The position numbers and the translations under genes are program-made. This document shows positions 6,639-45,672 of a stretch of DNA of 45,672 bases, piece after piece. Every line of letters begins with the position of its first letter. The first letter of the stretch is position 1. Under the pieces are notes generated by a model that saw nothing but the letters and a program-made list of their open reading frames with translations, was not told where the DNA came from and ran no database searches. This DNA comes from a virus. Location of the stretch: positions 1 to 45,672 of IMG/VR virus record IMGVR_UViG_3300001203_000001, one strand, 5' to 3'.

Positions 6639-7036
6639 CAATCTAACTCAGATGCAAATAACCACATTTCATCTAACTTATCTTGTGGAATTTGTAAAAT
6701 AGAAGCCAATGCAATCACAGTTGGTTCTGACATACTATAGGTAGTGGCATATTTTAGTTTATTTTCTACCACTGTTTTAGTAGGTTCTGTAAGACTGTTT
6801 ATAGCCCCCTCTAATAAATCTGACATTCCATATATTTCTAATGCGGAATGAAATTGCCATGATTGTATTGTATCTGGTATTTTCTTATAATCTTTATTGA
6901 TTTCATAGGAATAAGGTATGTTATCATCCACACCTTCTCCTATGATATTCAAATGAGAAACAAAACTATCCGGGTCTTGCATATCCGGAACAACACCTAC
7001 TACAATTTCTTTTTTATTTTTTAATAGATATTCCAT
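6638..7036 (-). CDS. hypothetical protein (possible fibre-associated or assembly protein)
   Basis: Start moved to the ATG at 7036..7034, which overlaps the fibre stop (TAATG). The longer ORF-track start would overlap the fibre gene by 55 nt. Confidence 0.55.
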   Translation of the reverse strand: MEYLLKNKKEIVVGVVPDMQDPDSFVSHLNIIGEGVDDNIPYSYEINKDYKKIPDTIQSWQFHSALEIYGMSDLLEGAINSLTEPTKTVVENKLKYATTYSMSEPTVIALASILQIPQDKLDEMWLFASELD

Positions 7037-8349
7037 TACAAATTCCTCATATTGGGGATAACACCTGAATTGGGGTCTACATCCTTCCAACCCTCAGAAT
7101 AGGCAGGTAGTGCCATTAAATATTCAGCGCCTTGAGGGGCATAAAAATAAATGGGGTATGGAGAATACCCATAGAAATACCTAGGGTCTTCCTTAGTTTT
7201 GATAGTTATACTTTTCCAACCATCTGAGGGAGTTAATACAACATCCCCGGGTTGTTCTACACCATCCAGATATATCTTATTACTTCCAAAATCCCCTCTT
7301 ATACACAATGTTTGTGTCAAACACTTAGTATAACAATGAAAAGTAGTCTCTACCGGTCTAACTCCACTCATAAATAGAGATAAATAATGAGTGAGAGAAC
7401 CAGTAGGCTGATACCCCCCGGCTACCCCATTACCTGCTGTAAGTTTAGCCACCCAAAATTCAATACCATACCTACGATATAAACTACTCGCCTTAAGTTT
7501 TACCATCAACTCTGCTACTTCGGGGTCTAATACCCCGGCTGTTCCGCCATAAGTGGTATTATTATGTATAAACTTACCATTACTTTGTGTTGTAACCCCA
7601 TTGTATTTTACAAAATAATTTGGAAAACTAAAACTTTCAGGGGAAGTTACAGATAAATGAGTAGCCCCATTAAATCGTCCACTATCAAATAGATAATTAG
7701 TAAAAAACCCACCTGAGGAAGGTAACCCTATATCAAAATTAGCATCTTGTGCAGTACCTATATTAGTGTAGGTAGGAGGGGAGCTAGGGGATAACATGGT
7801 TATTGAATTAATGGAAAAAGTACCAGAACCGTCCGTTCCCGTATCTCCTTGAATACCCTGAGGACCTTGTATACCTTGAGGTCCTGTAGCTCCTGTATCT
7901 CCTGTATCTCCTTGAGGACCTGTATCTCCTGTATCTCCTTGAATACCCTGAGGACCTTGTATACCTTGAGGTCCTTGTGGACCTGTATCTCCTTGGATAC
8001 CTTGAGGTCCAGTATCACCTGTATCACCCTTCGGGATGGAGAAATCAAAAATCGCGGCTTTTGTAGTTCCTGAGTTTGTAATCGTCGCTGTCGTGCCAGA
8101 GGAGGCCTGTGTGACCGTGCCTAACGACACAGTTGCTTCTAGGTCACTAGCGTCTTGGCCATTGATTTGGCCCACGTTTAAAAGGTCGTTGTTATCTAAG
8201 TCTAGGTCTTCCCCCATAGAGTTGGGAGTAGTACCATCACGAGATAAAGTCTTTTCAAGAGCGTCTTCGACTGCTTGAAAATTTTGATTGATGCGACTGA
8301 TAGCTGTGTTACTAAAGTCTGCAATATCTTCTGTAGTAAGCTTAGTCAT
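7036..8349 (-). CDS. tail fibre protein with a collagen-like Gly-X-Y domain
   Basis: 437 aa. The N-terminus ([26 protein letters not shown]) is shared with the second fibre. There are 23 uninterrupted G-X-Y triplets ([13 protein letters not shown]...). Confidence 0.8.
7822..8028 (-). repeat. coding tandem repeat (9/18-nt periodicity) encoding collagen-like GXY triplets
   Basis: Repeated ggtgatac/ggaccttgtataccttgagg-type units are visible in the DNA. They correspond to fibre residues about 108-176. Confidence 0.85.
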
Positions 8350-9510: not shown

Positions 9511-9539
9511 ATTATACCATATTTACGGAAAGATGTCAA
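9511..9539 (-). promoter_or_regulatory. consensus sigma70 promoter for the leftward (structural) arm
   Basis: The minus strand reads TTGACA (9539..9534), a 17-nt spacer, then TATAAT (9516..9511). Confidence 0.75.
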
Positions 9540-13259: not shown

Positions 13260-13685
13260 TTGACAAAATTAGTATTCGTGTACGGCACGTTAAAATCAAA
13301 TTTCTCAGGAAAGCATTACTTTAAAACTAATCCTATCATTGGCAAGACAAAAGCTGACTACGTGGTGTTTGGTAAAGGTTTTCCTAAAGCATTGAAGACT
13401 GAAGATTATTTCAACCGAAAAAACCCACTAACAAATCCTCAAATCGGTAAATTACGTGGTGAAATCTACTCTGCTGGTGAGACAACTCTACAGCAATTAG
13501 ATCGATACGAAGGTTATCCATCTTTCTATTCTCGAGAAGAAATTGAAGTGGAAACACCAGACGGTATTGTCAAAGCTTTGATGTACCACGCTAACGAAGC
13601 TGCTGATGTAGATTTAAGTCAACAAACTTATGTTGAAGTCGATGCTGATGGTGACCTTCTGTGGCCTGAACAACTGGCTGGTTAA
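13260..13685 (+). CDS. gamma-glutamyl cyclotransferase-like (AIG2/GGACT family) protein
   Basis: TTG start with an AAGGAG RBS. Hallmark motifs VFVYGTLKS near the N-terminus and LDRYEGYPSFYSREEI. Confidence 0.75.
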   Translation: MTKLVFVYGTLKSNFSGKHYFKTNPIIGKTKADYVVFGKGFPKALKTEDYFNRKNPLTNPQIGKLRGEIYSAGETTLQQLDRYEGYPSFYSREEIEVETPDGIVKALMYHANEAADVDLSQQTYVEVDADGDLLWPEQLAG

Positions 13686-13722
13686 TACCGGTTTAATTTT
13701 ATTTATTATAAGGAGTCCATAT

Positions 13723-15054
13723 ATGTGTGGATTATTTGGAATGGTATCAAATGCCGCTCTATCAGCTAGTGAGCGAGAGGTATTTAGTACTGGATTAATG
13801 CTTAATGTAACTCGTGGGGAAGACTCCACAGGTGTTATACGGGACATGGGGGGTCGTATCGAAGTAGACAAGTCTGCTTGTCCTTCCCCTTATTATGTCT
13901 ATACACAATCTGGGTCAGACTTTATTTCTGGTTCAGATACTATTGATCGTGTAGGTAATGTTGTGTCTAAAGACAAGGGGTACTTCCTTTTAGGTCACAC
14001 ACGTTCGGCTACTATCGGTAGTGTAACTGAAAACAACGCCCACCCGTTTTCGTTTAAGAATGTTGTGGGAATGCATAACGGTACTATTAAAAATAATTTT
14101 ATAGGGTCTAGTAAATTCGGGACAGACTCCGAAGCTTTATATAAATTAATTTCTGATATGGGAGTACATAATGCTCTTAAAGAAGTTACTAATGGTATCG
14201 ATGGGGCAGCTTATGCTTTAACTTTCTTTGACCGAACTGATGGGTCTTTGAAAATTATTCGTAATACAAAAAGACCCTTGTGGTTTGCTTATATGACGAA
14301 CGGAACAACTTTAGTTTGGTCTTCTGAGAAAAAACATCTTTTTGATGCTATTAAAGGGTACAGCAGGAATCCTATCACTGAACTAAAGAAAGAAGATATT
14401 GACTCCGACCACTTTGAGTTTGATGAAACTCTTAATATGTTCTCTCCTAAACCTAACAGATTGATTACTATTAGTAAGGACAGTAACGTCTCTGACTTTA
14501 CCGTAGAACATTTAGTGGGATTACCAGCGGATGGTGGTGAAATATTGGGTTACACAGCCTACGGCTACGGTCATGGGAATACCTATCATCATAAGGCTGC
14601 TTCTACTGCAAAAAAGCAGGTAACGTCAAGCCAGACATCTCTTCCTCAAGGGAGTCTAAAAGATATTCGGGAATTCGAAAGCTACTTGGACTTGACGTAT
14701 AGAAATCTTAAGCAGCTACATAAGAAAAGATTGAACCGACTACCTTGGTTACATGAAGCTAAGGGGGCAGAGGTTGTACCTTTTGTAAAAAAGCCTAGAG
14801 TAGAGGTTATAGAAGAGTCTCAAGTCTCTTTTGTAGGTTCTACAAATATAAAATATCCCGGCCCTAACAACGCTTTAATTGATTACGATGGGATAAAAAA
14901 AGAATTAGCGGATGGTTGTGCTTGTTGTACTAGACAATTATTCGCTGATACAATGAGACCTGATGCCTTGAGTCAAATAAAATGGCTTTCAGGTGGTGGA
15001 TTTGTATGTCAACCGTGTGTTAATGAAAACCCAAGTTTATACTTTATGAATTAG
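13723..15054 (+). CDS. class-II (Ntn) glutamine amidotransferase domain protein with a C-terminal Cys-cluster extension
   Basis: The ATG at 13723 (AAGGAG RBS) gives MCGLFGMVS, with the Cys2 nucleophile. Further motifs: RGEDSTG, GHTRSATIG, NAHPF, MHNGTIKN, GTDSEA. The C-terminus carries CACC..CQPC. Confidence 0.85.
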   Translation: MCGLFGMVSNAALSASEREVFSTGLMLNVTRGEDSTGVIRDMGGRIEVDKSACPSPYYVYTQSGSDFISGSDTIDRVGNVVSKDKGYFLLGHTRSATIGSVTENNAHPFSFKNVVGMHNGTIKNNFIGSSKFGTDSEALYKLISDMGVHNALKEVTNGIDGAAYALTFFDRTDGSLKIIRNTKRPLWFAYMTNGTTLVWSSEKKHLFDAIKGYSRNPITELKKEDIDSDHFEFDETLNMFSPKPNRLITISKDSNVSDFTVEHLVGLPADGGEILGYTAYGYGHGNTYHHKAASTAKKQVTSSQTSLPQGSLKDIREFESYLDLTYRNLKQLHKKRLNRLPWLHEAKGAEVVPFVKKPRVEVIEESQVSFVGSTNIKYPGPNNALIDYDGIKKELADGCACCTRQLFADTMRPDALSQIKWLSGGGFVCQPCVNENPSLYFMN

Positions 15055-15062
15055 GAGATATT

Positions 15063-15893
15063 ATGTCTAATAAAACATTTGATAATTTAAAAGATGCTAT
15101 CGCACATACAAAAGATGTGATGTATCAAACTATGGGAACTCGTAGAAGTTTTGGTGTGGTATGTGAATTAGATGGAGTATTCCAGTCTATGTTTGCTTAC
15201 AATCAACCTTGTTGGGGAGGCATTCGTAAATATGCCTCTGATTCAAATAATTGTACTAGACCGGATGATGAAAAACCTTCCGATTTAGACTATAAATTCC
15301 CTGAGGGAAGCCCTATGTTCTTGTTAGTTGGTAGTACCGACGGTAGTTTACCAGAAGAACACGAGAAATCACAGGAGGTTTTAGACTTATTATTCTCAAA
15401 AGATTCTCCTTGGAAATCTGGGTTTGATCCTGATACAACTGTATATACACGTAAGAATAAACGATTGTTTATTGAGTTTAATAATACAGACATAGACCCA
15501 ACAACCATGATTAATTTTATTAATACAGTTTTCTCTGGGTTGAGTGTTACACACTACAGTTACTATCGAAACCTAGGTTTAACACCTATTAAATCAGTTA
15601 TGTTGACTTGCTACTTAGGCTCTTGTCATTTTGACCTTGAGTATGGTGGAAAACCTTTTAGCTACCAAAATCAATACTATTACGGTAGAACTTTTGGGAT
15701 GAAGGAGTTCTTGGAAGGTAAGCCAACCTCTAAGAAAGAGAGTTTTAAACAAGGGGTTGACTATAATCGAGTAGGTCTTGCTGATATTTTCTCCAAGTCA
15801 GATGGTATTAACCTTGTAAAACACATGAACAAAACCGTTAAACAACCAAGTGATATTGAAACTGAGCTTGACAAAGTATTGAAGGGAATTTAG
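15063..15893 (+). CDS. hypothetical protein (no recognisable family) inside the ligase operon
   Basis: 276 aa, AGGAG RBS. The stop abuts the next start (TAGATG). Confidence 0.7.
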   Translation: MSNKTFDNLKDAIAHTKDVMYQTMGTRRSFGVVCELDGVFQSMFAYNQPCWGGIRKYASDSNNCTRPDDEKPSDLDYKFPEGSPMFLLVGSTDGSLPEEHEKSQEVLDLLFSKDSPWKSGFDPDTTVYTRKNKRLFIEFNNTDIDPTTMINFINTVFSGLSVTHYSYYRNLGLTPIKSVMLTCYLGSCHFDLEYGGKPFSYQNQYYYGRTFGMKEFLEGKPTSKKESFKQGVDYNRVGLADIFSKSDGINLVKHMNKTVKQPSDIETELDKVLKGI

Positions 15894-16772
15894 ATGTTAG
15901 AAGGTATGAAAAGAAAAAATTTAATCGGGGCTGACCCTGAATTATTTGTGAGAAACTCTGGTCATAAATTTGTATCCGCACACGATTTGATTCCGGGTAC
16001 AAAAGCAAAACCTTTTAGAGTCAATGGAGGGGCTATACAGGTAGACGGAGTAGCCGCTGAATTTAACATTGATCCTGCGGATAGAGAAGACGATTTTGTA
16101 GAGAATATGACTTCTGTATTAGAGGAATTGGATAATCACATTAAAAAAGATCACCCTTCCTATCATTTACAAGTATCCCCAGTGGCTTCTTTTCCTAAGA
16201 AATATTTTAACGCTCTTCCAGAAGAAGCTAAGGAATTGGGTTGTGAAGCTGACTTGAACGCTTGGTCAGGAAAAAGAAACCCGACACCATCCACTAAAAA
16301 ACCTATTCGTACTGGTGGTGGACACATTCATATTGGTTGGACTGACGATGAAGATATCACAGACGCTGCTCATGTAAATGATTGTGTCCAAGTCGTTAAA
16401 CAACTTGATTCGATTCTTTATCCTCTGTCTATGCTATGGGACGAAAATAGCGAAAGACGGAGTTTATATGGGATTATGGGGTCTTACCGAGTGAAAGAGT
16501 ATGGAGTCGAGTATCGACCTTTATCAAATGCTTGGGTCGCTGACCCAGACCTGTATAGATGGTTGTTCCGAACTATTCAAGAAGCAATGGAGCACTTGGA
16601 TAATGATCTACGTATCTACCACGACAAAGACACTAAGAATATTCTGGAGTGGTGTCGAGGTAATTCTCATAAGAATTTAAAGAGAAATACAATACTTGCA
16701 CACTATAAATTCTTAGTGAATGAGTTAGAGCTTCCTCTACTCCCTTCTTATTATATTAACCCAAGTCAATAG
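15894..16772 (+). CDS. COOH-NH2 (carboxylate-amine) ligase, phiEco32-like type 2 amidoligase
   Basis: Motifs IGADPELFV, VDGVAAEFNIDPA, GGGHIHIGW and YGVEYRPLSNAWV match my recollection of the phage GCS-superfamily ligase family (Pfam COOH-NH2_lig). Confidence 0.65.
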   Translation: MLEGMKRKNLIGADPELFVRNSGHKFVSAHDLIPGTKAKPFRVNGGAIQVDGVAAEFNIDPADREDDFVENMTSVLEELDNHIKKDHPSYHLQVSPVASFPKKYFNALPEEAKELGCEADLNAWSGKRNPTPSTKKPIRTGGGHIHIGWTDDEDITDAAHVNDCVQVVKQLDSILYPLSMLWDENSERRSLYGIMGSYRVKEYGVEYRPLSNAWVADPDLYRWLFRTIQEAMEHLDNDLRIYHDKDTKNILEWCRGNSHKNLKRNTILAHYKFLVNELELPLLPSYYINPSQ

Positions 16773-16779
16773 GTGAATA

Positions 16780-17418
16780 ATGCTATCTGTAAACACACGT
16801 TACGACCATCCAGATGACGCTATTATGCGATTAAGTAAGACATTCGTTAAGAATGAGGGTAGATTTGGGTATATTAGAGGTCGCAGAGAAGATTTTGATT
16901 TTTTACTACAGTACCCTGGTGGTACAGAAGTCTTAATCGATGTTAACTCTGAAGAAGTTGATATTAGCTCTCCTAAATTGGGTTTTATAAACTCTAATGG
17001 TCGAGCTTATTACCCAACTCTCACCCCAGTCAGAAAACAAAGACAGGGTGTCTGCTTAGATTACTTAATGTTACACGACACGTTAGGTACAAACTGGCAT
17101 TATGAGAAGTTATTCGAGGCAAACTATATTGAAACTGTATGTCTTATGCTTGAAAATACCTATCCTTCTTTAGAACAAGCTCTACAAATAGTATCTAAGA
17201 CTAAAGTAACTAAGATTAGTAGGCATAAATCGTGTGCCTTTTCTAGGAATTTAGCAGTTACTAACATCGGTCCAAACAAGGGGGAGTTCCTTCTCAACTT
17301 TAGAAGCCTACCTTGTGGGATTATACAAGACCAAAAAATTAGTTTGTTTGATAACCTATCTAGGATAACAAAAAACTCCCTGCTAAAACACCTAAACCAA
17401 GGAGGTTTTAATGCCTGA
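16780..17418 (+). CDS. hypothetical protein (no recognisable family) inside the ligase operon
   Basis: 212 aa. It overlaps the next gene by 8 nt. Confidence 0.7.
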   Translation: MLSVNTRYDHPDDAIMRLSKTFVKNEGRFGYIRGRREDFDFLLQYPGGTEVLIDVNSEEVDISSPKLGFINSNGRAYYPTLTPVRKQRQGVCLDYLMLHDTLGTNWHYEKLFEANYIETVCLMLENTYPSLEQALQIVSKTKVTKISRHKSCAFSRNLAVTNIGPNKGEFLLNFRSLPCGIIQDQKISLFDNLSRITKNSLLKHLNQGGFNA

Positions 17419-18469
17419 CATTGACGAATTTGACTTTTTTCAAACTTTACCGACAGAGGTTTCCAACCAACCATTTAACTCTACAACCAATTCTATGAAA
17501 CGTAAACGTCACGATCCATTCCAAGCTTTGACGGAAAACCCTTTACGTACTAAATTAGGTAGTGACCATCAAGGGGATATTGGTATTGAGATAGAGTTGG
17601 AGGTAAACCCACAGTGTGATTTCCCCCAATCCCCTGTCCACTGGTTATTGATTGGGGAAGACTCTTTGAGACATGGATTTGAGATTATAACTAAGGGTAA
17701 TCTACGTATTGGTACCTCTAGGTATAACAATACACTGGCATCTTTGTCAGAATTTTTAGGTAAACACAAAGATATTTTACAAACTAGTATTCGGACATCG
17801 ACGCACTTACATTTTAGTGTGTTAGACTATACTATCCATGAGATTTATAACATTTGTCTACATTACTATCTTATAGAAAATCTTCTTGTAGCCACTAATG
17901 ATAAATGTAGACATGGAAATCTATTTTGTCGTCGTCTTCAAGATGCTAATGGTATCATAAAACATATGAAAGAGTCTATAGCAAACGGTTCAATCCAATA
18001 CTTTGTAAATCAATATAAATACGGAGCATTAAATCTTGCCTCTATTTCTAATTTAGGCTCAGTCGAGTTTAGATTTATGGAGGCTTCTACAGACCCAAGC
18101 TTGACTAAGCTAAATTTAGATATTCAAATTCTACATAGTTTAGTGACTAAATGCCGTAGGTTTAATATCCATAATAGTATTAAACTAATTGAAGACCACG
18201 GTATAAAACCATTCCTATCATCCTTCTTAACTCAGGAGCAGGTGGAGTATCTAACCAATCTTGACATTGAAACATTAAATGAATTCTCGACTTGTAATCT
18301 TGCTGACGTAGAGAGTTTAGGACAATCCCTTGATAATCTAGGTATTAAACTTAAAAAAAGACATTGCCAACCACAGATAGCTGTACAACGGGATTCTGAT
18401 GAAGTTCACAGTCATTTTTTACCTGAGGACTACGACGGAGAGTTTTATACAGACCTGAAAGAGGCGTGA
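17411..18469 (+). CDS. putative amidoligase (glutamine-synthetase/GCS-fold, Amidoligase_2-like)
   Basis: GGAGG RBS. Motifs GIEIELEV, GEDSLRHGFEIIT, STHLHFSV and GSVEFRFMEAS. Confidence 0.7.
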   Translation: MPDIDEFDFFQTLPTEVSNQPFNSTTNSMKRKRHDPFQALTENPLRTKLGSDHQGDIGIEIELEVNPQCDFPQSPVHWLLIGEDSLRHGFEIITKGNLRIGTSRYNNTLASLSEFLGKHKDILQTSIRTSTHLHFSVLDYTIHEIYNICLHYYLIENLLVATNDKCRHGNLFCRRLQDANGIIKHMKESIANGSIQYFVNQYKYGALNLASISNLGSVEFRFMEASTDPSLTKLNLDIQILHSLVTKCRRFNIHNSIKLIEDHGIKPFLSSFLTQEQVEYLTNLDIETLNEFSTCNLADVESLGQSLDNLGIKLKKRHCQPQIAVQRDSDEVHSHFLPEDYDGEFYTDLKEA

Positions 18470-19386
18470 TGGAAGACTATGAAGAAGCAATGAAAAAGCT
18501 CGAAAAATACCAGAAATACCAGGAATTAATGCAACTAAAATATACTTATATATCTGATAAACCCAAAGATGAAGATGAAGGAGACGATATGTCAAAAATT
18601 AAATTTGTAGTATTACCCTACAATAAATATTCTAAGAGCGCTAAGATTTTAAAGGAATCTTTGGGTGGTGTGTTCCCTCGGCGCATGGATTTTAAAAACA
18701 GAATTGTTGTTAACTGGGGTTGCTCAGGAGGTCATAACGGCACTGTTCTAGATCACTTCAAGGAACAAGGTAATTTAGTCTTAAATCCTCACGAGATTAT
18801 CCAAAAGTGTTCTAATAAAAAATCATTCTTTGATCTAATGAAACAACATGGAGTTAGTCATCCAGATTACACAACTGAGGTTGGTGAAGCCTTATCTTGG
18901 GCGGCTGACGGTCTGGTATTTGGTCGAAATAAACATGGTCATTCTGGTAATGATATATCAAAATCAACAGAGTACTTAGAGTTTGGTAATTCAGATTTTT
19001 TAACAAAAGAATTTTGGGTTAAATATATCCCAAAGAAACATGAGTATAGAGTTCACATATTCCAAGGCGATATTATTGATTTTCAAAGAAAAGCTTTAAG
19101 AAAAACAGATTCACACGGTGTTGATATTGATACAGATAACGTTGATTTTACGATTCGAAATCTTAGTAATGGATTTGTGTTTATTCGTCAGGATGTTGAA
19201 TTACCTGATGATGTACGAGATCAATCCCTAAAAGCTTTTAAAGCCACTGGTTTAGATTTTGGTGCTATAGATGTCATCTATCAAGAAAAAACTAAGAAGG
19301 CTTACGTCTTAGAAGTGAATACTGCACCGGGTCTAGAAGGTTCGACTGTAGAAAATTATGTAAATGCAATAAAAAATAAATATTAG
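18469..19386 (+). CDS. ATP-grasp family ligase
   Basis: The ATG overlaps the upstream TGA. The C-terminal motif AYVLEVNTAPGLEG is typical of ATP-grasp enzymes. An alternative start at 18589 has a perfect AAGGAG RBS. Confidence 0.7.
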   Translation: MEDYEEAMKKLEKYQKYQELMQLKYTYISDKPKDEDEGDDMSKIKFVVLPYNKYSKSAKILKESLGGVFPRRMDFKNRIVVNWGCSGGHNGTVLDHFKEQGNLVLNPHEIIQKCSNKKSFFDLMKQHGVSHPDYTTEVGEALSWAADGLVFGRNKHGHSGNDISKSTEYLEFGNSDFLTKEFWVKYIPKKHEYRVHIFQGDIIDFQRKALRKTDSHGVDIDTDNVDFTIRNLSNGFVFIRQDVELPDDVRDQSLKAFKATGLDFGAIDVIYQEKTKKAYVLEVNTAPGLEGSTVENYVNAIKNKY

Positions 19387-19388
19387 GG

Positions 19389-19416
19389 TTGACAAAATAC
19401 CCACATATGTTATAAT
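19389..19416 (+). promoter_or_regulatory. consensus sigma70 promoter with extended -10
   Basis: AGGG-TTGACA (19389..19394), a 16-nt spacer ending in TGT, then TATAAT (19411..19416). Confidence 0.75.
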
Positions 19417-19465: not shown

Positions 19466-19609
19466 ATGAATTATGATCTAATGTACTCTGCTGATTTCTA
19501 TAAGGTTTCACATAAGGCACAGTATCCTACTAATGTTACAAAAGTCCACTCAACACTAGTTGCACGTAGTGGCAATTTAAAGAAAGTAGTTGACAATGGA
19601 ACGTTTTAA
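19466..19609 (+). pseudogene. 47-codon fragment homologous to the N-terminus of nicotinamide phosphoribosyltransferase (NAMPT/NadV/Namat family)
   Basis: AAGGA RBS and ATG at 19466. ADFYKVSHKAQYPTNVTKVHSTLVAR aligns by eye with the conserved NAMPT N-terminus [26 protein letters not shown]. A stop follows 47 codons, and no continuation is seen in any frame. Confidence 0.6.
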
Positions 19610-20291
19610 GTATTATAAACGCGGTCAAGGGGAGTTAGATACGTCTAACTTTCCTGCTCTCCTAAGTGGTGTAACAGTTGATAAACTTGATGAAAAAACT
19701 TTTATGAGTTTGTTAGCACTACAATCCTATCATAAAAGTATCTTCAACCAGCATACTAACATAAATCCTTTTAATATTAAAGTAGAGGTATTAGGTTACG
19801 TAGCTCACCTAAGAGCTGATAAAGATTTGTTTAATTCTGCACAATTATATGAAGAATACTTACCTATTATGGATTTTGATATAAAAAATATCCAACACGA
19901 ATCAACATCTAAGATTAAATCCAGCAAAACTTCATGTTTTGAAATTCATATAGATTTAAAACCTGCCGGTAGTACTTTATACATTGGGGCTGATAAGTCT
20001 GTTAGTAAGTTTTGTGATGTAAAAGTTTGTGCAGATAAAATTCGTACTTACGGAAAAGTAACAGCCTTATATCTAGACTTAACTGGGATTGATCTGACAG
20101 AATACAAAAGTATTGTTATTGTTGATGATATTTTAGGTGGTGGGGCTACCATACAAATGGTAATTGATGCCCTACCTCTACCATTAAAGGTAACTAAAAA
20201 CCTCTACCTGTGGACTGCCTACAATGAAGGTATTCATAGACGTGAGTTTTTAGATCAATTTAGAGGGTATAATATTGGAGATTTAATATGA
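19596..20291 (+). CDS. shortened ribose-phosphate pyrophosphokinase (Prs)-like type I phosphoribosyltransferase-fold protein
   Basis: PRPP loop KSIVIVDDILGGGATIQMV. CADKIR aligns with Prs IIDKRR, GADKS with SPDHGG, and LGYVAHLRADKD with PYYGYARQDRK. About 231 aa versus about 315 aa for Prs. The start could be TTG 19590 or ATG 19596. Confidence 0.65.
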   Translation: MERFKYYKRGQGELDTSNFPALLSGVTVDKLDEKTFMSLLALQSYHKSIFNQHTNINPFNIKVEVLGYVAHLRADKDLFNSAQLYEEYLPIMDFDIKNIQHESTSKIKSSKTSCFEIHIDLKPAGSTLYIGADKSVSKFCDVKVCADKIRTYGKVTALYLDLTGIDLTEYKSIVIVDDILGGGATIQMVIDALPLPLKVTKNLYLWTAYNEGIHRREFLDQFRGYNIGDLI

Positions 20292-20476
20292 AATTAGCAT
20301 CACGATGCGAAGTTTGTGATTCAACCCCCAGCCATGATACATTGGCTGCATTAGGTATTAACACCCCTATTGCTTACTGGGTAACTATTAACCCCACAAC
20401 ATCTAGATGTAATAGATGCCACGAAGAAATCAATAATAATTTATCAGAACTAGGAGATAATGATGAACAAACATAG
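20288..20476 (+). CDS. small zinc-ribbon protein
   Basis: 62 aa with CEVC ... CNRC and an acidic tail. The ATGA overlaps the upstream gene. Confidence 0.55.
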   Translation: MKLASRCEVCDSTPSHDTLAALGINTPIAYWVTINPTTSRCNRCHEEINNNLSELGDNDEQT

Positions 20477-21017
20477 AATCGTATTATTTAGAGGTTTAGC
20501 TGGTAATATCTTTTCCAGAGGACTAGATAAATGGATGAAAAATTTTAAATCACGACCTCAAGATGGGATTATGCCTAATACTTGTTCTGTTCACTCTTAT
20601 ACAGAAGTTAAAAAAGTAGCTAATCAATTAGTGTCAGACTATCGTTCAGGTAAGATTAACCGAGTGACACTTATAGGACACTCACTAGGAGCAAGAGCAG
20701 CAATTAAATTACAGTCTGTATTATACCGACACAAGGTGCCAGTTTGTGCTGTAATATCCCTTGATTATGTTAAGAATATTGTAGGCCTTAATGATCTAAA
20801 AGGCCACCCTAAAATTTCAAACTTCCATATCCGGTCTAATGAAAAATCAAGACCTCGTAAATTAAAGAATGCCGTAGAGCGTAAATTCCCTGATCTAAAT
20901 CATATCCAACTTGATGATGATCCGAAAGTACATGATCTGATTACAAAATACGTGTGGTTAAACCAACAACTGGTTTCAGTTAAGGGACGTGGAGTTATCC
21001 ACATTAATAATCTGTGA
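20460..21017 (+). CDS. alpha/beta-hydrolase-like protein (GHSLG nucleophile elbow)
   Basis: 185 aa. LIGHSLGARAA matches the GxSxG lipase/esterase motif, with candidate Asp/His residues downstream. Confidence 0.5.
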   Translation: MMNKHRIVLFRGLAGNIFSRGLDKWMKNFKSRPQDGIMPNTCSVHSYTEVKKVANQLVSDYRSGKINRVTLIGHSLGARAAIKLQSVLYRHKVPVCAVISLDYVKNIVGLNDLKGHPKISNFHIRSNEKSRPRKLKNAVERKFPDLNHIQLDDDPKVHDLITKYVWLNQQLVSVKGRGVIHINNL

Positions 21018-31500: not shown

Positions 31501-31684
31501 TTATAAAGTAGAAGAAAAGAAACGTACTATCTATTTCAAGAGTGGTAATCGAGCCGTATTTAAGAATGTGACTTGGTTTAATCCAGACGGTACATTCTTG
31601 AGGTTTGGATCGGATGAAGGTTATGTCTTAATCAATATGAAAGAAATTGAATATATCATTATAGACGGAGAAAGAGTTAAATAA
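31493..31684 (+). CDS. hypothetical protein
   Basis: 63-aa ORF overlapping its neighbours. Confidence 0.5.
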   Translation: MPDYKVEEKKRTIYFKSGNRAVFKNVTWFNPDGTFLRFGSDEGYVLINMKEIEYIIIDGERVK

Positions 31685-32049
31685 TGGAAATTTATCATAT
31701 ATTAGTCTGTGGGGGTCGTGAGTATTCTAATTGGAATAAATTTCGAGACACCATAACCTCAGTTTTAGAAGATTGTCCATCTAATGCAACCCCTTGTATT
31801 GTACAAGGTGGAGCCAAGGGTGCAGACTTTATGGCTAAAATTTTTGCAATCTCTAGGGGTATCCTATACTTAGAATACCCTGCCAATTGGAAAGAATATG
31901 GTAGGTCAGCAGGCCATATTCGTAATCAAGAAATGCTTGATTCAAACTATATAAACATAGGGATTGTTTTTCCCGGTGGTAGAGGGACTCAAGATATGAA
32001 GAATAAATTAGTAAAAAACAATATTGATATTGTGGAGGTGGAGAAATAA
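31684..32049 (+). CDS. SLOG-fold protein (DUF2493/YspA-like)
   Basis: ILVCGGREY ... VQGGAKGADFMA ... FPGGRGT fits the Rossmann-like SLOG family pattern GGxxGAD. Confidence 0.55.
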   Translation: MEIYHILVCGGREYSNWNKFRDTITSVLEDCPSNATPCIVQGGAKGADFMAKIFAISRGILYLEYPANWKEYGRSAGHIRNQEMLDSNYINIGIVFPGGRGTQDMKNKLVKNNIDIVEVEK

Positions 32050-32228
32050 TGAAGAGACCCCAATACGGAAAAATCCTCGTTTCAGAAATCTTTAACACTC
32101 GAGCGGAAGCAGATGAGTTTGCTAAAGAAATGAAAGAGGATTACAAAGTAGCAGATATTTCAATCAAACATGACATACAAAGGACAACGGATTCCAGATG
32201 GAAAGCAATAATATATCAGAAGATTTAA
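32049..32228 (+). CDS. small hypothetical protein (59 aa)
   Basis: TAATG coupling at 32049. Just below the track cutoff. It overlaps the next gene start by 31 nt. Confidence 0.4.
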   Translation: MKRPQYGKILVSEIFNTRAEADEFAKEMKEDYKVADISIKHDIQRTTDSRWKAIIYQKI

Positions 32229-32536
32229 GTGAGGGTTTAAAGTTTGACAGCGATAAAATTCGCATGGAGCTACTCCCACCAGAGTTACTAACTAACACTG
32301 CTCAAGTATTAACCTTCGGAGCTAATAAGTATGCAGATCGTAATTGGGAACTAGGTATGGATTGGTCTAGGGTCTATGGTGCTTTAATGAGACACCTATG
32401 GGCTTGGTGGAATCCCCTCCAATCGTCTAAGGATGAAGAAACTGGGTTCTCCCACCTCTCTCATGCATCAGCTTGTTTAACATTCCTTATGGCTTACGAA
32501 GAACGTAATGTAGGAAAGGACGACAGACCAAAATGA
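32198..32536 (+). CDS. dATP/dGTP diphosphohydrolase-like domain protein (DUF5664, MazG-related)
   Basis: KFDSDKIRMELLPPELL..VLTFGANKYADRNWE..ALMRHLWAW matches my recollection of the phage DUF5664 family. Confidence 0.55.
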   Translation: MESNNISEDLSEGLKFDSDKIRMELLPPELLTNTAQVLTFGANKYADRNWELGMDWSRVYGALMRHLWAWWNPLQSSKDEETGFSHLSHASACLTFLMAYEERNVGKDDRPK

Positions 32537-32871
32537 GAAAAGTAATTATTGAATCCCCATTTGCGGGGGATGAAGAACGGAACATTGATTATGCTAGGTT
32601 GTGTGTTAGGGATAGTTTGTCTAAGGGTGAAGCACCTATTGCTAGTCACCTACTATACACACAAAAAACAATCCTAGATGACTCAATCCCAGAAGAACGT
32701 CAACAAGGTATTGATGCTGGGTTGGCTTGGCGTGATGTCGCAGATTCTACTGTTGTTTATGTTGATTTAGGTATTTCGAAAGGTATGGAATACGGTATCA
32801 AACGAGCAGAAGAACAGGGTATTAAGATAGAGTATAGAAGTTTAATCGATCAAGAAATGAGGAGTATTTAA
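32533..32871 (+). CDS. nucleoside 2-deoxyribosyltransferase-like protein (DUF4406-type)
   Basis: VIIESPFAGD..NIDYA..EAPIASHLLY is the pattern typical of this family, which is often adjacent to DUF5664 genes in phages. Confidence 0.5.
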   Translation: MRKVIIESPFAGDEERNIDYARLCVRDSLSKGEAPIASHLLYTQKTILDDSIPEERQQGIDAGLAWRDVADSTVVYVDLGISKGMEYGIKRAEEQGIKIEYRSLIDQEMRSI

Positions 32872-45051: not shown

Positions 45052-45672
45052 TACGAAGATAACTCCTCTAGGTAGTAGTAAGTTGAGCTTTGAGTCCAAA
45101 TAGCATTACCGGGTAGACTCTTAAACTTAACACGATAGGTGTGGCTGCCGGTGTCCCCCGGTGTATAATGGAATTTGATAGTTTTTGAGAATGTGGAATT
45201 ACCTCCTGAATACCCCGATTGTGTTTCAACGGTTACACCATCTACTTCCAACTCAGCCCTAAATCCATCTCTATCCCCACTAGCGGAGCCTGCTGTATAG
45301 TCAACAGCTCCCATCACTGAGATTCGACTCGTTGGAGAAACAGTGGCTCTTACAATTGTGTCTAATGAAACGTAAGTACTACCACCAGTTGGTCCGACGG
45401 AATTAGCTAACCTTTTAATGTCAGACTCCCAGAGCTTTATACCGGAAGGACTCCCCCAAGTAGGGTCATTACCCACACCGTTTGTAGTCAATACTTGACC
45501 CAAAACTCCGGGGCTTAGTTTTACAATATCAAAACCATTGTAGTATAGTATATCCCCTTGAGAAAGAGATAACGCAGAAATATCATCTAAGAAATTACTA
45601 TGGGCTTGTACGTCAACACCTACCTCTAAATCTAGGTTGGCTTGTGCTGTAGGCACATCTGGTACATCAGAT
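45051..45672 (-). CDS. tail fibre protein, C-terminal part (continuation of 498..1 across the circular junction)
   Basis: The frame is open from the window end to the stop at 45053..45051. The apparent GTG start at 45656 is internal once the ends are joined. Confidence 0.8.
   Translation of the reverse strand, partial: SDVPDVPTAQANLDLEVGVDVQAHSNFLDDISALSLSQGDILYYNGFDIVKLSPGVLGQVLTTNGVGNDPTWGSPSGIKLWESDIKRLANSVGPTGGSTYVSLDTIVRATVSPTSRISVMGAVDYTAGSASGDRDGFRAELEVDGVTVETQSGYSGGNSTFSKTIKFHYTPGDTGSHTYRVKFKSLPGNAIWTQSSTYYYLEELSS
45624..45672. repeat. terminal overlap identical to 1..49
   Basis: Direct reading of both ends. Confidence 0.95.

Follow-up and report, generated by a model that had tools for sequence, protein, structure and literature searches.

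A phage-specific amidoligase module of the phiEco32/LUZ24/TC6 type, probably for stepwise amide ligation with gamma-glutamyl editing

What chemistry is performed by a phage operon that encodes three ATP-dependent ligases, a glutamine amidotransferase and a gamma-glutamyl cyclotransferase, and on which acceptor? The question is raised by a seven-gene block in IMG/VR record IMGVR_UViG_3300001203_000001. The whole stretch of 45,672 nucleotides that was analysed is called the window here. Our analysis shows that the block is a phage-specific amidoligase module of the phiEco32/LUZ24/TC6 type, which most likely forms amide bonds step by step with ATP and edits gamma-glutamyl groups.

Organization of the locus

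An ORF check of the sequence confirmed the seven co-directional, tightly coupled genes that the initial annotation had described at positions 13260-19386. The gene order is GGCT, GATase, 276-aa protein, COOH-NH2 ligase, 212-aa protein, amidoligase and ATP-grasp, with the following features:

13260..13685, + strand: GGCT/AIG2-like gamma-glutamyl(amine) cyclotransferase (GGCT), 141 aa, TTG start
13723..15054, + strand: class-II (Ntn) glutamine amidotransferase-like protein (GATase), 443 aa, N-terminal Cys nucleophile domain at about residues 1-235
14917..15018, + strand: C4 zinc-ribbon motif in the GATase, CxxC-(26)-CxxC (C399, C402, C429, C432)
15063..15893, + strand: 276-aa conserved protein of the ORF3 family, a distant clade of TC6_056-like proteins, with an invariant Cys50
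15894..16772, + strand: phiEco32-type COOH-NH2 ligase (GCS/GS superfamily), 292 aa
16780..17418, + strand: 212-aa conserved beta-barrel protein of the ORF5 family, phrog_11055 (PHROG 11055, 4e-20)
17411..18469, + strand: GS-like amidoligase (Amidoligase_2-type), 352 aa
18469..19386, + strand: RimK-like ATP-grasp ligase, 305 aa, acidic/Lys-rich N-terminal extension of about 40 aa
19389..19416, + strand: sigma-70-type promoter, TTGACA-16-TATAAT with TG, a perfect 12/12 match

The claimed junctions were also read in the sequence. The TAG of the 276-aa gene (15891-15893) directly abuts the ATG of the COOH-NH2 ligase gene at 15894, the 212-aa and amidoligase genes share a ATGCCTGA overlap at 17411-17418, and the amidoligase and ATP-grasp genes meet in TGATG at 18467-18471. 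An alternative GTG start at 18466 would give an ATP-grasp protein of 306 aa. Shine-Dalgarno-like AGGAG/GGAG lies close 5' of all seven genes. The true GATase start is the ATG at 13723 (MCGLFG) and not the start of the longer ORF at 13630; the JGI gene call also gives 443 aa. The promoter begins 3 nt past the ATP-grasp stop codon and marks the 3' boundary of the operon. As annotated, the block lies in the early/middle arm of a small podovirus-like genome, which is complete at about 45.6 kb, 5' of the primase/helicase and DNA polymerase genes.

Protein families and conserved residues

Motif conservation was judged over 25-88 homologues per family. The proposal of three different ATP-dependent carboxylate-amine ligases in one operon was supported by PHROG/Pfam matches and conserved catalytic residues. 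The COOH-NH2 ligase matched Pfam PF14395 (COOH-NH2_lig, 1.1e-9) and PHROG 3815 (3e-74), is 45% identical to TC6_051, and has conserved E16, E56, H144, H146, E206 and R208. The amidoligase matched PHROG 7469 (2.2e-30) and, by tblastn, UFV-P2 gp23, which is annotated with PF12224; E60, E62, E64, H132, H134, R167, E219 and R221 each show at least 99% conservation. The ATP-grasp protein matched PHROG 2599 (6.6e-59), and its conserved residues are K118, R154, E193, R195, K209, D269, E283 and N285. The best sequence neighbours of this protein are the glutamate-adding RimK, MptN, CofF and LysX families, with which it shares the ATP/Mg site, but the match lies mainly in the C-terminal ATP-binding half and scores 46-48 bits where the cut-offs are 143-350. 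The NCBIfam matches to rimK_fam (4e-12) and MptN (9e-13) are each far below cut-off, and similarity to D-Ala-D-Ala ligase is weak. The GATase, like the ATP-grasp protein, falls far short of the curated cut-off in every family that has been characterised. The Pfam assignments expected from the initial annotation were therefore recovered in part: GGACT, GATase_6 and COOH-NH2_lig were found, whereas the window amidoligase fell below Amidoligase_2 detection (relatives match PF12224) and the ATP-grasp protein missed the RimK cut-off (20.7 bits vs 21). None of the families was shown to lack its catalytic residues, which were conserved across homologues.

The GATase carries the class-II catalytic hallmarks attributed to it. 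It matched GATase_6 (3.9e-13) and PHROG 4736 (3.7e-45), Cys2 is kept in 64 of 65 aligned homologues, and R94, N119-G120 and D135 show at least 97% conservation. By ungapped match, R94 and N119-G120 are equivalent to GlmS R73 and N98-G99, and D135 is the Asp of the TDSE motif. The protein retains the residues that bind free glutamine or a gamma-glutamyl head group. No synthase domain was detected in it by profile searches, and no ammonia-channel partner was identifiable. The zinc ribbon ends its C-terminal region, and each of its four Cys residues is kept by 87-90% of the 86 family members compared; SU10 gp85 likewise has a Cys-rich C-terminus.

The GGCT matched Pfam GGACT (3.9e-14) and PHROG 2520 (1.7e-16), in line with the AIG2/gamma-glutamylcyclotransferase claim, and its catalytic motifs YGTL and LDxxE84 (LDRYE84G) are intact. 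It is an accessory component of the system, present in 23 of 83 related loci. A Peptidase_C26 gamma-glutamyl hydrolase gene is present in 70 of the 83 loci and was not found in the window.

The two proteins initially called orphans each belong to a conserved family. For the 276-aa protein, HMMER gave 247 relatives, 103 of them at E ≤ 1e-10; it is a conserved member of the system, related to the TC6_056-like family with an hhalign probability of 97-98%. Its family has invariant P49, C50, G52, R55, Y57, P72, D74, Y234 and R236, with Cys50 in a QPCxG context. The AF2 model is confident (pLDDT 91.8, pTM 0.91) and gave no fold match in the PDB, including no thymidylate-synthase or methyltransferase fold; its BFVD matches were proteins from cluster-bearing phages. 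In the related loci compared, the COOH-NH2 ligase gene lies directly 3' of the 276-aa gene wherever the latter occurs. The protein looks like an enzyme with a Cys residue. The 212-aa family, with homologues UFV-P2 gp22 and SU10 gp87, occurs in 81 of 83 loci and adjoins the ligase and amidoligase genes. It has only about 8 conserved positions, none typically catalytic, and variable C-termini; the window protein has Leu where 99% of relatives have Arg. Its AF2 model (pLDDT 80.6) consists of beta-barrels with only partial Tudor/KOW/SH3-like fold matches. Because of this model and the few conserved residues, the protein probably has no catalytic role and serves as an adaptor or subunit that sits between the two GS-type ligases.

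Distribution and relation to known phage clusters

The module recurs widely: 319 phage records in GenBank have it, as do more than 521 contigs in IMG/VR. As the proposed neighbourhood check confirmed, the genes occur together far beyond chance, since each of the five core families is present in 80-83 of the 83 independent loci compared (GATase 80, COOH-NH2 ligase 83, 212-aa family 81, amidoligase 83, ATP-grasp 81). The gaps (median -4) are at most 20 nt between the ligase and 212-aa genes in 75 of 79 loci, and between the 212-aa and amidoligase genes in 78 of 81. The set also occurs in Kuravirus SU10, Vicosavirus UFV-P2 and Paundecimvirus TC6; the exact gene order of the window is common only to a few metagenomic relatives (L012, L084, L085). 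A search of 185,579 species genomes gave only 17 loci, all on MAG contigs, and 10 of these contigs measure 44-51 kb, the size of cluster-bearing phage genomes. The module is phage-restricted and essentially absent from cellular genomes.

The clusters of phiEco32, LUZ24, PaP3 and TC6 have the same COOH-NH2 ligase, 212-aa family, amidoligase, GATase-II, ATP-grasp and GGCT, the same ligase/212-aa/amidoligase order, and the same position 5' of the primase/helicase. The window differs from them by protein identities of at most 45%, the absence of DNA similarity, and the missing Peptidase_C26. Since the cluster is annotated in hundreds of sequenced phages, cultured ones included, the window is a further member of a known phage system (phiEco32, LUZ24 and TC6 types) and not a new one. 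PF14395 is the Pfam family 'Phage phiEco32-like COOH.NH2 ligase-type 2', and the cluster is the one that Iyer, Abhiman, Burroughs & Aravind 2009 predicted from genome comparisons. The literature search agreed with the earlier statement that this prediction came with no assigned substrate: it returned annotation-level mentions and restatements of Iyer et al. 2009, and no biochemical study, product, substrate or phenotype for any member. The cluster proteins are made during infection: the early gene products listed by SU10 proteomics include the ATP-grasp, GATase and YtfP-like proteins (PMC4281155).

Proposed chemistry and candidate acceptors

In the proposed scheme, the three ligases would act in sequence, each turning a carboxylate into an acyl-phosphate and then joining an amine. 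The product would be a short amide or pseudopeptide chain in which one or more of the links are glutamyl, probably gamma-glutamyl. The 212-aa protein may act as an adaptor that joins the COOH-NH2 ligase and the amidoligase in a complex. The GATase would deliver glutamine-derived ammonia to an activated carboxylate or hydrolyse a gamma-glutamyl amide, and the GGCT here, or Peptidase_C26 in most relatives, would remove gamma-glutamyl as 5-oxoproline or glutamate. We infer the reaction order and the complex from gene order only. Counted in favour of a gamma-glutamyl theme are the putative GGACT function, Peptidase_C26 in the relatives, and the GlmS-equivalent GATase residues with the TDSE Asp.

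A similar logic is known elsewhere. A gamma-glutamyl amide is added by a ligase and later removed in polyamine catabolism (PuuA/PuuD, PauA/PauD), ergothioneine synthesis (EgtA/EgtC) and butirosin synthesis (BtrJ/BtrG), and the remover types of these systems (C26/class-I GATase-like, class-II GATase-like and GGCT) all occur in the phage system. The likeness is one of logic only: the GATase resembles EgtC weakly, with an E value of 1e-5 and a score far under the cut-off, and the phage system lacks a partner decarboxylase, carrier protein or oxidase.

As acceptor, we tentatively place a host or phage protein or peptide first, closely followed by a small amine metabolite, then a cytoplasmic cell-wall precursor, and last DNA or a nucleotide. 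A macromolecule is favoured because a core component has a Tudor/KOW/SH3-like beta-barrel and the GATase has a zinc ribbon. Pupylation offers a parallel: PafA and Dop are GS/GCS-superfamily, GCS-like ligases that join the Glu gamma-carboxylate to Lys in isopeptide bonds on proteins, with a deamidase/amidase partner. In contrast, a small, disordered Pup-like tag ending in a conserved Gln/Glu is absent, the C-termini of the 212-aa family being variable, and the cluster encodes no protein or tag that is a candidate acceptor. Three ligases with two or three hydrolases also exceed the machinery of known protein modifications, and the Leu at the 99%-Arg position of the 212-aa protein is likewise counted against.

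It is possible, though we hold it to be the less probable course, that the module makes and recycles a small molecule in free form, either a gamma-glutamyl pseudopeptide or an amine that has been gamma-glutamylated (for example a polyamine conjugate or a thiol like glutathione), altering host physiology or supporting the phage. The enzyme classes fit the well-established gamma-glutamyl cycle (GCS-type ligase, ATP-grasp ligase, GGCT, Ntn hydrolase), polyamine/amine catabolism (GS-like ligase with C26/GATase-like hydrolase) and butirosin protecting-group chemistry (ATP-grasp with GGCT). The frequent Peptidase_C26, the faint EgtC resemblance and the lack of an encoded target protein point the same way. 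However, no equivalog-level match to GshA, GshB, PuuA or PauA was obtained, the Ntn enzyme is a class-II GATase and not GGT, and the glutathione system (GshA, GshB, GGT, GGCT/ChaC) has no counterpart to the third ligase or to the two additional conserved proteins. The cluster has no linked transporter, precursor-supply or tailoring enzymes, its conserved non-catalytic beta-barrel and zinc ribbon are hard to fit to a soluble metabolite pathway, and cellular genomes essentially lack the module.

Cell-wall remodelling, in which the ligases and GATase add amino acids to or amidate cytoplasmic peptidoglycan precursors and so block superinfection or control lysis, seems unlikely. Stem peptides do have a gamma-linked D-Glu, enzymes that depend on a GATase (MurT/GatD and AsnB/LtsA, for example) amidate them, and the ATP-grasp protein has its weak D-Ala-D-Ala-ligase similarity; it is nevertheless nearer to RimK-type glutamate ligases than to Ddl. 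The module includes no Mur-ligase, signal peptide, membrane segment or glycan-handling enzyme, and in all lineages examined it adjoins primase/helicase and DNA polymerase, not lysis genes. PMC10580990 quotes a cell-wall proposal for phiEco32 and attributes it to Iyer et al. 2009.

That constant replication-gene neighbourhood, and the resemblance (no closer than that) of the invariant QPCxG Cys to the Cys nucleophile of pyrimidine-C6-attacking enzymes, would suit an amino-acid or amide moiety placed on phage DNA or the nucleotide pool against restriction, which we rate the least probable of these readings. In some viral contigs, amidoligase and amidotransferase genes do co-occur with thymidine-hypermodification genes (PMC8989533). 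Among the window ORFs scanned, however, no dUMP/dCMP hydroxymethylase, 5-HMUDK, aGPT-Pplase, DpdA or glycosylase-like gene was present, as the initial annotation had stated for canonical thymidine hypermodification, and the 276-aa model matched no thymidylate-synthase/methyltransferase fold. To our knowledge, phiEco32-, LUZ24- and PaP3-type DNA has been restriction-mapped with no reports of hypermodification.

If the amidoligase module does remove gamma-glutamyl groups as we propose for stepwise ligation with editing, gamma-glutamyl would be a transient handle or protecting group in these phages, or the product would be turned over.

Operon structure and genome setting

The region 13260-19386 contained seven ORFs, all on the + strand and in one direction: a GGCT (ORF1), a GATase, a 276-aa protein (ORF3), a COOH-NH2 ligase (ORF4), a 212-aa protein (ORF5), an amidoligase (ORF6) and an ATP-grasp ligase (ORF7). 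The operon described in the initial annotation was confirmed, and its account of the junctions was borne out by direct reading. The ORF3 stop abuts the ORF4 start (TAG/ATG at 15893/15894), ORF5 runs 8 nt into ORF6 (ATGCCTGA, 17411-17418), and ORF6 and ORF7 share TGATG (18467-18471), with GTG 18466 as an alternative ORF7 start. An AGGAG/GGAG ribosome-binding site lies upstream of every one of the seven genes. The GATase starts at ATG 13723 (MCGLFG), 37 nt past the GGCT stop, and the longer ORF start at 13630 is not used; an independent JGI gene call also gave a GATase of 443 aa.

The following features were located in and around the operon.

9511-9539, - strand: sigma-70 promoter with extended -10 TG, 12/12 consensus, where the structural and early arms diverge
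19389-19416, + strand: sigma-70 promoter (TTGACA-16-TATAAT, extended -10 TG), 12/12 consensus, three bases past the ATP-grasp stop
19590-20291, + strand: PRTase-like protein of 233 aa with a type-I phosphoribosyltransferase motif (VIVDDILGGGATI)
16501-16680, + strand: alternative-frame ORF of 59 aa inside the COOH-NH2 ligase gene, matching 26 similar ORFs in related loci
7036-8349, - strand: virion protein containing a repeat segment of collagen-like or tail-fibre type (many PHROG tail-fibre families, residues ~100-180)
31684-32871, + strand: trio of small neighbouring genes, matching the YAcAr SLOG family (6.8e-14), PF18909 (2e-30) and DUF7768 (1.3e-34)

Because of the perfect promoter at 19389-19416, the end of the operon was placed at 19386, and the PRTase-like gene that starts at 19590 was taken to be a separate unit. 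A split PurF, in which the class-II GATase and the PRTase-like ORF would together yield ribosylamine, was ruled out, since the latter lies behind a perfect promoter of its own, has no counterpart in any of the 83 related loci compared and resembles retron type III-A PRTases (PADLOC model 1.1e-6; Pfam Pribosyltran weakly). Behind it come a Cys-rich ORF of 62 aa and an ORF with weak likeness to alpha/beta-hydrolases (20460-21017). The 59-aa alternative-frame ORF is most likely a by-product of the conserved ligase coding sequence and not a gene. In the trio at 31684-32871, the PF18909 gene encodes a MazZ-like dATP/dGTP diphosphohydrolase N-terminal domain, and PurZ was not seen with it; handling of a nucleotide pool or nucleotide signal is possible.

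An exact 49-nt overlap joins the termini (1-49 and 45624-45672). Therefore, the sequence represents a complete genome of ~45.6 kb, circularly assembled (or terminally redundant), of which the module occupies ~13%. The same protein as one in the window was also present on JGI 3300001263 contig BBAY83_10000006. The structural arm is podovirus-like, with major head, portal/adaptor, terminase and tail proteins. The replication module comes next after the operon and comprises primase/helicase (starting 1.6 kb downstream), DNA polymerase, SSB, Cas4-like exonuclease and RNR.

Distribution and synteny among phages

No nucleotide-level relatives of the region were found in GenBank phages. At the protein level, the COOH-NH2 ligase matched 319 GenBank phage records and more than 521 IMG/VR contigs. 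The matched phages included LUZ24-like and PA11/TC6-like phages of Pseudomonas, kuraviruses of Escherichia, and phages of Vibrio, Aeromonas, Proteus and Klebsiella; the hosts of module phages comprise these genera and many uncultured marine hosts. The same families are annotated in UFV-P2, TC6, Asterion and SU10, always just upstream of primase/helicase.

Locus counts were obtained by iterated HMM searches with the window proteins against six-frame ORFs of the 83 loci.

Occurrence of the module families among 83 related loci
COOH-NH2 ligase: 83/83
Amidoligase: 83/83
212-aa family: 81/83
ATP-grasp: 81/83
GATase: 80/83
GGCT: 23/83
276-aa family: 9/83

The neighbourhood was therefore conserved in related phages, with GATase, ligase, 212-aa protein, amidoligase and ATP-grasp each in 80-83 loci and most commonly in that order. 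Junctions of at most 20 nt (median -4) linked the ligase to the 212-aa gene in 75 of 79 loci and the 212-aa gene to the amidoligase in 78 of 81. Ligase, ~200-aa protein and amidoligase kept their synteny beside replication genes, and this ligase/adaptor/amidoligase trio is the near-invariant centre of the module. The exact seven-gene order was also found in two Logan contigs (L084 and L085). Duplicated sub-modules were observed in five IMG/VR loci (L004, L006, L011, L018 and L039), as a second COOH-NH2 ligase with a 276-aa-family gene ahead of it and a second GATase with a GGCT behind it.

Among 185,579 prokaryotic species, represented by one genome each, only 17 loci were detected, all on MAG contigs; the module is therefore essentially phage-restricted. 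Ten of these contigs measure 44-51 kb, the size of these phage genomes, and are therefore most likely phage contigs. The window cluster adds a new and divergent member to a phage system already known but uncharacterised, and does not represent a new kind of system.

Catalytic enzymes and the two supposed orphans

Conservation of catalytic residues was judged over 25-88 homologues per family. The COOH-NH2 ligase matched PF14395 (1.1e-9, 38.3 bits against a cut-off of 25) and PHROG 3815 (3e-74), with conserved E16, E56, H144, H146, E206 and R208. The amidoligase had no Pfam match at E<=0.1, PF12224 (Amidoligase_2) included; it matched the PHROG 'amidoligase' (2.2e-30) and, by tblastn, UFV-P2 gp23 (annotated PF12224, 1.6e-13), and its relatives reach PF12224. 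Its E/H/R motifs are kept (E60, E62, E64, H132, H134, R167, E219 and R221). The ATP-grasp protein matched PHROG 2599 (6.6e-59) and retains a conserved site (K118, E193, K209, D269, E283 and N285); its Pfam ATP-grasp matches were sub-threshold, RimK falling 0.3 bit under the cut-off. Among the Pfam families that had been expected, GGACT and COOH-NH2_lig were recovered, ATP-grasp fell below threshold, and Amidoligase_2 was reached by relatives of the window protein; the GATase matched GATase_6.

The nearest ATP-grasp families were the glutamate-adding RimK/MptN/LysX, with scores far under their cut-offs. Because these scores lie below the curated RimK cut-offs (rimK_fam 46 bits vs 143; PRK10446 18 bits vs 331), membership in RimK is not indicated and the database label 'S6 glutaminyl transferase' is unjustified. 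The protein carries an acidic/Lys-rich N-terminal extension of ~40 aa (18469-18588) that is absent in most homologues (median 260 aa); its closest relative, in L084 (349 aa), is likewise of the long form, and an alternative start could be the internal ATG 18589 with the site GAAGGTGA. No extra Pfam domains indicative of Rosetta-stone fusions were detected in long variants of GGCT, amidoligase, ATP-grasp or GATase.

The GATase matched Pfam GATase_6 (3.9e-13, 50 bits against a cut-off of 27) and begins with MCG behind a ribosome-binding site. Cys2 is kept in 64 of 65 homologues, an ungapped PDB match pairs R94 and N119-G120 with GlmS R73 and N98-G99, and D135 lies within the TDSE motif. Matches to GlmS, PurF, AsnB and EgtC were confined to N-terminal domains (residues 1-205 of the GATase); the C-terminal half of the protein had no family match and no recognisable synthase/acceptor domain. 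As an Ntn domain without such a joined domain, the protein does not qualify as a bona fide glutamine-dependent amidotransferase of the GlmS, PurF, AsnB or GltS kind. A C-terminal C4 zinc ribbon (CxxC-26-CxxC) is conserved in the family. In six loci (L036, L045, L059, L069, L071 and L025), the conserved CG(I/L)VG N-terminus sits inside a longer ORF and has Ile, not Met, ahead of it. As the protein needs Cys first after processing, this points to starts that are of the ATT/ATA type or mis-called.

The GGCT matched Pfam GGACT (3.9e-14, 53.7 bits against 22.8) and has both VYGTLK and LDRYE84G, that is, the YGTL motif and the catalytic Glu. The copies in duplicated 'GATase + GGCT' units often have no catalytic Glu, several carrying Gln, Asn or Met. 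A gene for Peptidase_C26 (C26), a class-I GATase-like gamma-glutamyl hydrolase, occurred in 70 of the 83 loci and is absent from the window. The two enzymes are not mutually exclusive alternatives, since both were present in 17 loci. Gamma-glutamyl-removing enzymes of three different kinds recur across the module.

The 276-aa and 212-aa proteins had been called orphans, which did not hold for either. Single-sequence searches of a word-indexed database of 5.8 billion proteins matched both only to themselves; their relatives emerged from an exhaustive HMMER scan and profile searches. No PDB matches were obtained with profiles of the COOH-NH2 ligase, the 276-aa protein or the 212-aa protein. No hhalign signal related the two proteins to each other or to the ligases, as would be expected of divergent copies.

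For the 276-aa protein, the exhaustive scan returned 247 relatives, 103 of them at E<=1e-10, with invariant P49, C50, G52, R55, Y57, P72, D74, Y234 and R236. Profile comparison (hhalign 97-98%) places it as a divergent clade of the TC6_056-like family, Cys alone being common to both clades. Together, the two clades were found in 71 of the 83 loci. Of the 12 loci with neither, one is UFV-P2; in the remaining 11, the fetched sequence extends less than 5.2 kb ahead of the ligase, and the gene may be located farther out. Where a locus has two COOH-NH2 ligases, one of them is immediately preceded by a 276-aa-family gene.

The protein had no Pfam match and no PDB sequence match. Its very confident AlphaFold model (pLDDT 91.8, pTM 0.91) found no neighbour in the PDB (best E 0.18, TM below 0.2). 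In BFVD, it matched uncharacterised proteins of the cluster-bearing phages CVT22, GAP52, LAh_6 and 4_4572, and weakly PaP4; the GAP52, LAh_6 and PaP4 counterparts matched at the fold level only. UFV-P2 gp19/gp20 and SU10 gp89/gp90 were not detectable as homologues by hhalign. A thymidylate-synthase-like identity, raised by a PC...D..PF-like motif, was ruled out by the lack of a fold match.

The 212-aa family occurred in 81 of the 83 loci (phrog_11055, 4e-20), with UFV-P2 gp22 and SU10 gp87 as homologues. The model is mostly beta (pLDDT 80.6), and its structural matches were partial only, to Tudor/KOW/SH3-like domains such as the RapA N-terminal domain and eIF5A. About eight positions are conserved in the family, none of them typically catalytic. 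We read the protein as a non-catalytic adaptor or subunit. A Pup/ubiquitin-like tag was ruled out because family C-termini are not conserved, and no small ORF with the conserved C-terminal Gln/Glu of a pupylation-like tag was present. Residue 81 (17020-17022), which belongs to the few conserved positions, is Leu in the window protein, vs Arg in 99% of 82 family members.

Possible chemistry, acceptor and significance

The module combines ATP-dependent carboxylate-amine ligases of three distinct folds, all with intact active sites, an Ntn amidohydrolase that binds glutamine/gamma-glutamyl, and up to three kinds of gamma-glutamyl-cleaving enzyme. The machinery for amide-chain building and trimming proposed in the initial annotation is supported by the three ligases, the Ntn GATase and the GGCT with intact motifs. 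The ligases would act in sequence, building a glutamyl-containing chain by amide ligation, and the ligase, adaptor and amidoligase may form a complex. The GATase could serve as an ammonia donor or a gamma-glutamyl amidase, and GGCT/C26 would remove a gamma-glutamyl handle or recycle the product. This inventory parallels the gamma-glutamyl cycle and pathways in which gamma-glutamyl serves as a handle (PuuA/PuuD, EgtA/EgtC and BtrJ/BtrG), by analogy and not by membership.

Concerning the acceptor, a protein or peptide is tentatively placed first, and a small amine metabolite is a possible candidate. A peptidoglycan precursor, suggested in 2009 as quoted in PMC10580990, seems unlikely; the content of Iyer et al. 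2009 is given here as relayed by PMC10580990 and PMC11706807. DNA or a nucleotide is more doubtful still. Amidoligases adjoin hypermodification genes elsewhere (PMC8989533). Among 40 window ORFs, a set that takes in only a minority of the ORFs below 100 aa, no dUMP hydroxymethylase or TET/JBP, 5-HMUDK kinase or aGPT-Pplase of the 5-hmdU route was found by Pfam, PHROGs or NCBIfam, in agreement with the earlier view that a canonical thymidine hypermodification pathway is not supported.

Speculatively, the module might install a previously undescribed glutamyl/peptidyl amide on a macromolecule, the Tudor/KOW-like 212-aa protein acting as targeting adaptor and the Cys-bearing 276-aa protein being a transferase of a new kind. 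The target could conceivably be a host protein (e.g., a transcription/translation component) or the phage's own DNA or proteins. If true, phages would widely use a chemistry for host takeover or anti-defence that lacks any characterised precedent. None of the seven operon proteins matched PADLOC anti-phage defence models. In SU10, proteomics placed an ATP-grasp, a GATase and a YtfP-like protein among the early gene products (PMC4281155).

In the literature found, the module figures only in annotations or where the 2009 prediction is repeated, with no biochemical or genetic function. Since cultured phages already carry the module, the window does not open this question, which is real and long-standing; those phages are the better place to attack it. 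The comparison sharpens the parts list in four respects: both supposed orphans are conserved members, one with a confident predicted fold without a solved relative; the GATase has a conserved zinc ribbon; gamma-glutamyl removers of three kinds recur; and the ligase/adaptor/amidoligase trio forms a near-invariant centre. A module that takes up ~13% of the genome and keeps its catalytic residues intact in phages of many hosts must therefore do something important. Identifying the product of the module, itself predicted in 2009, would bring to light either a new metabolite made by the phage or a covalent modification, likewise new, that serves host takeover.
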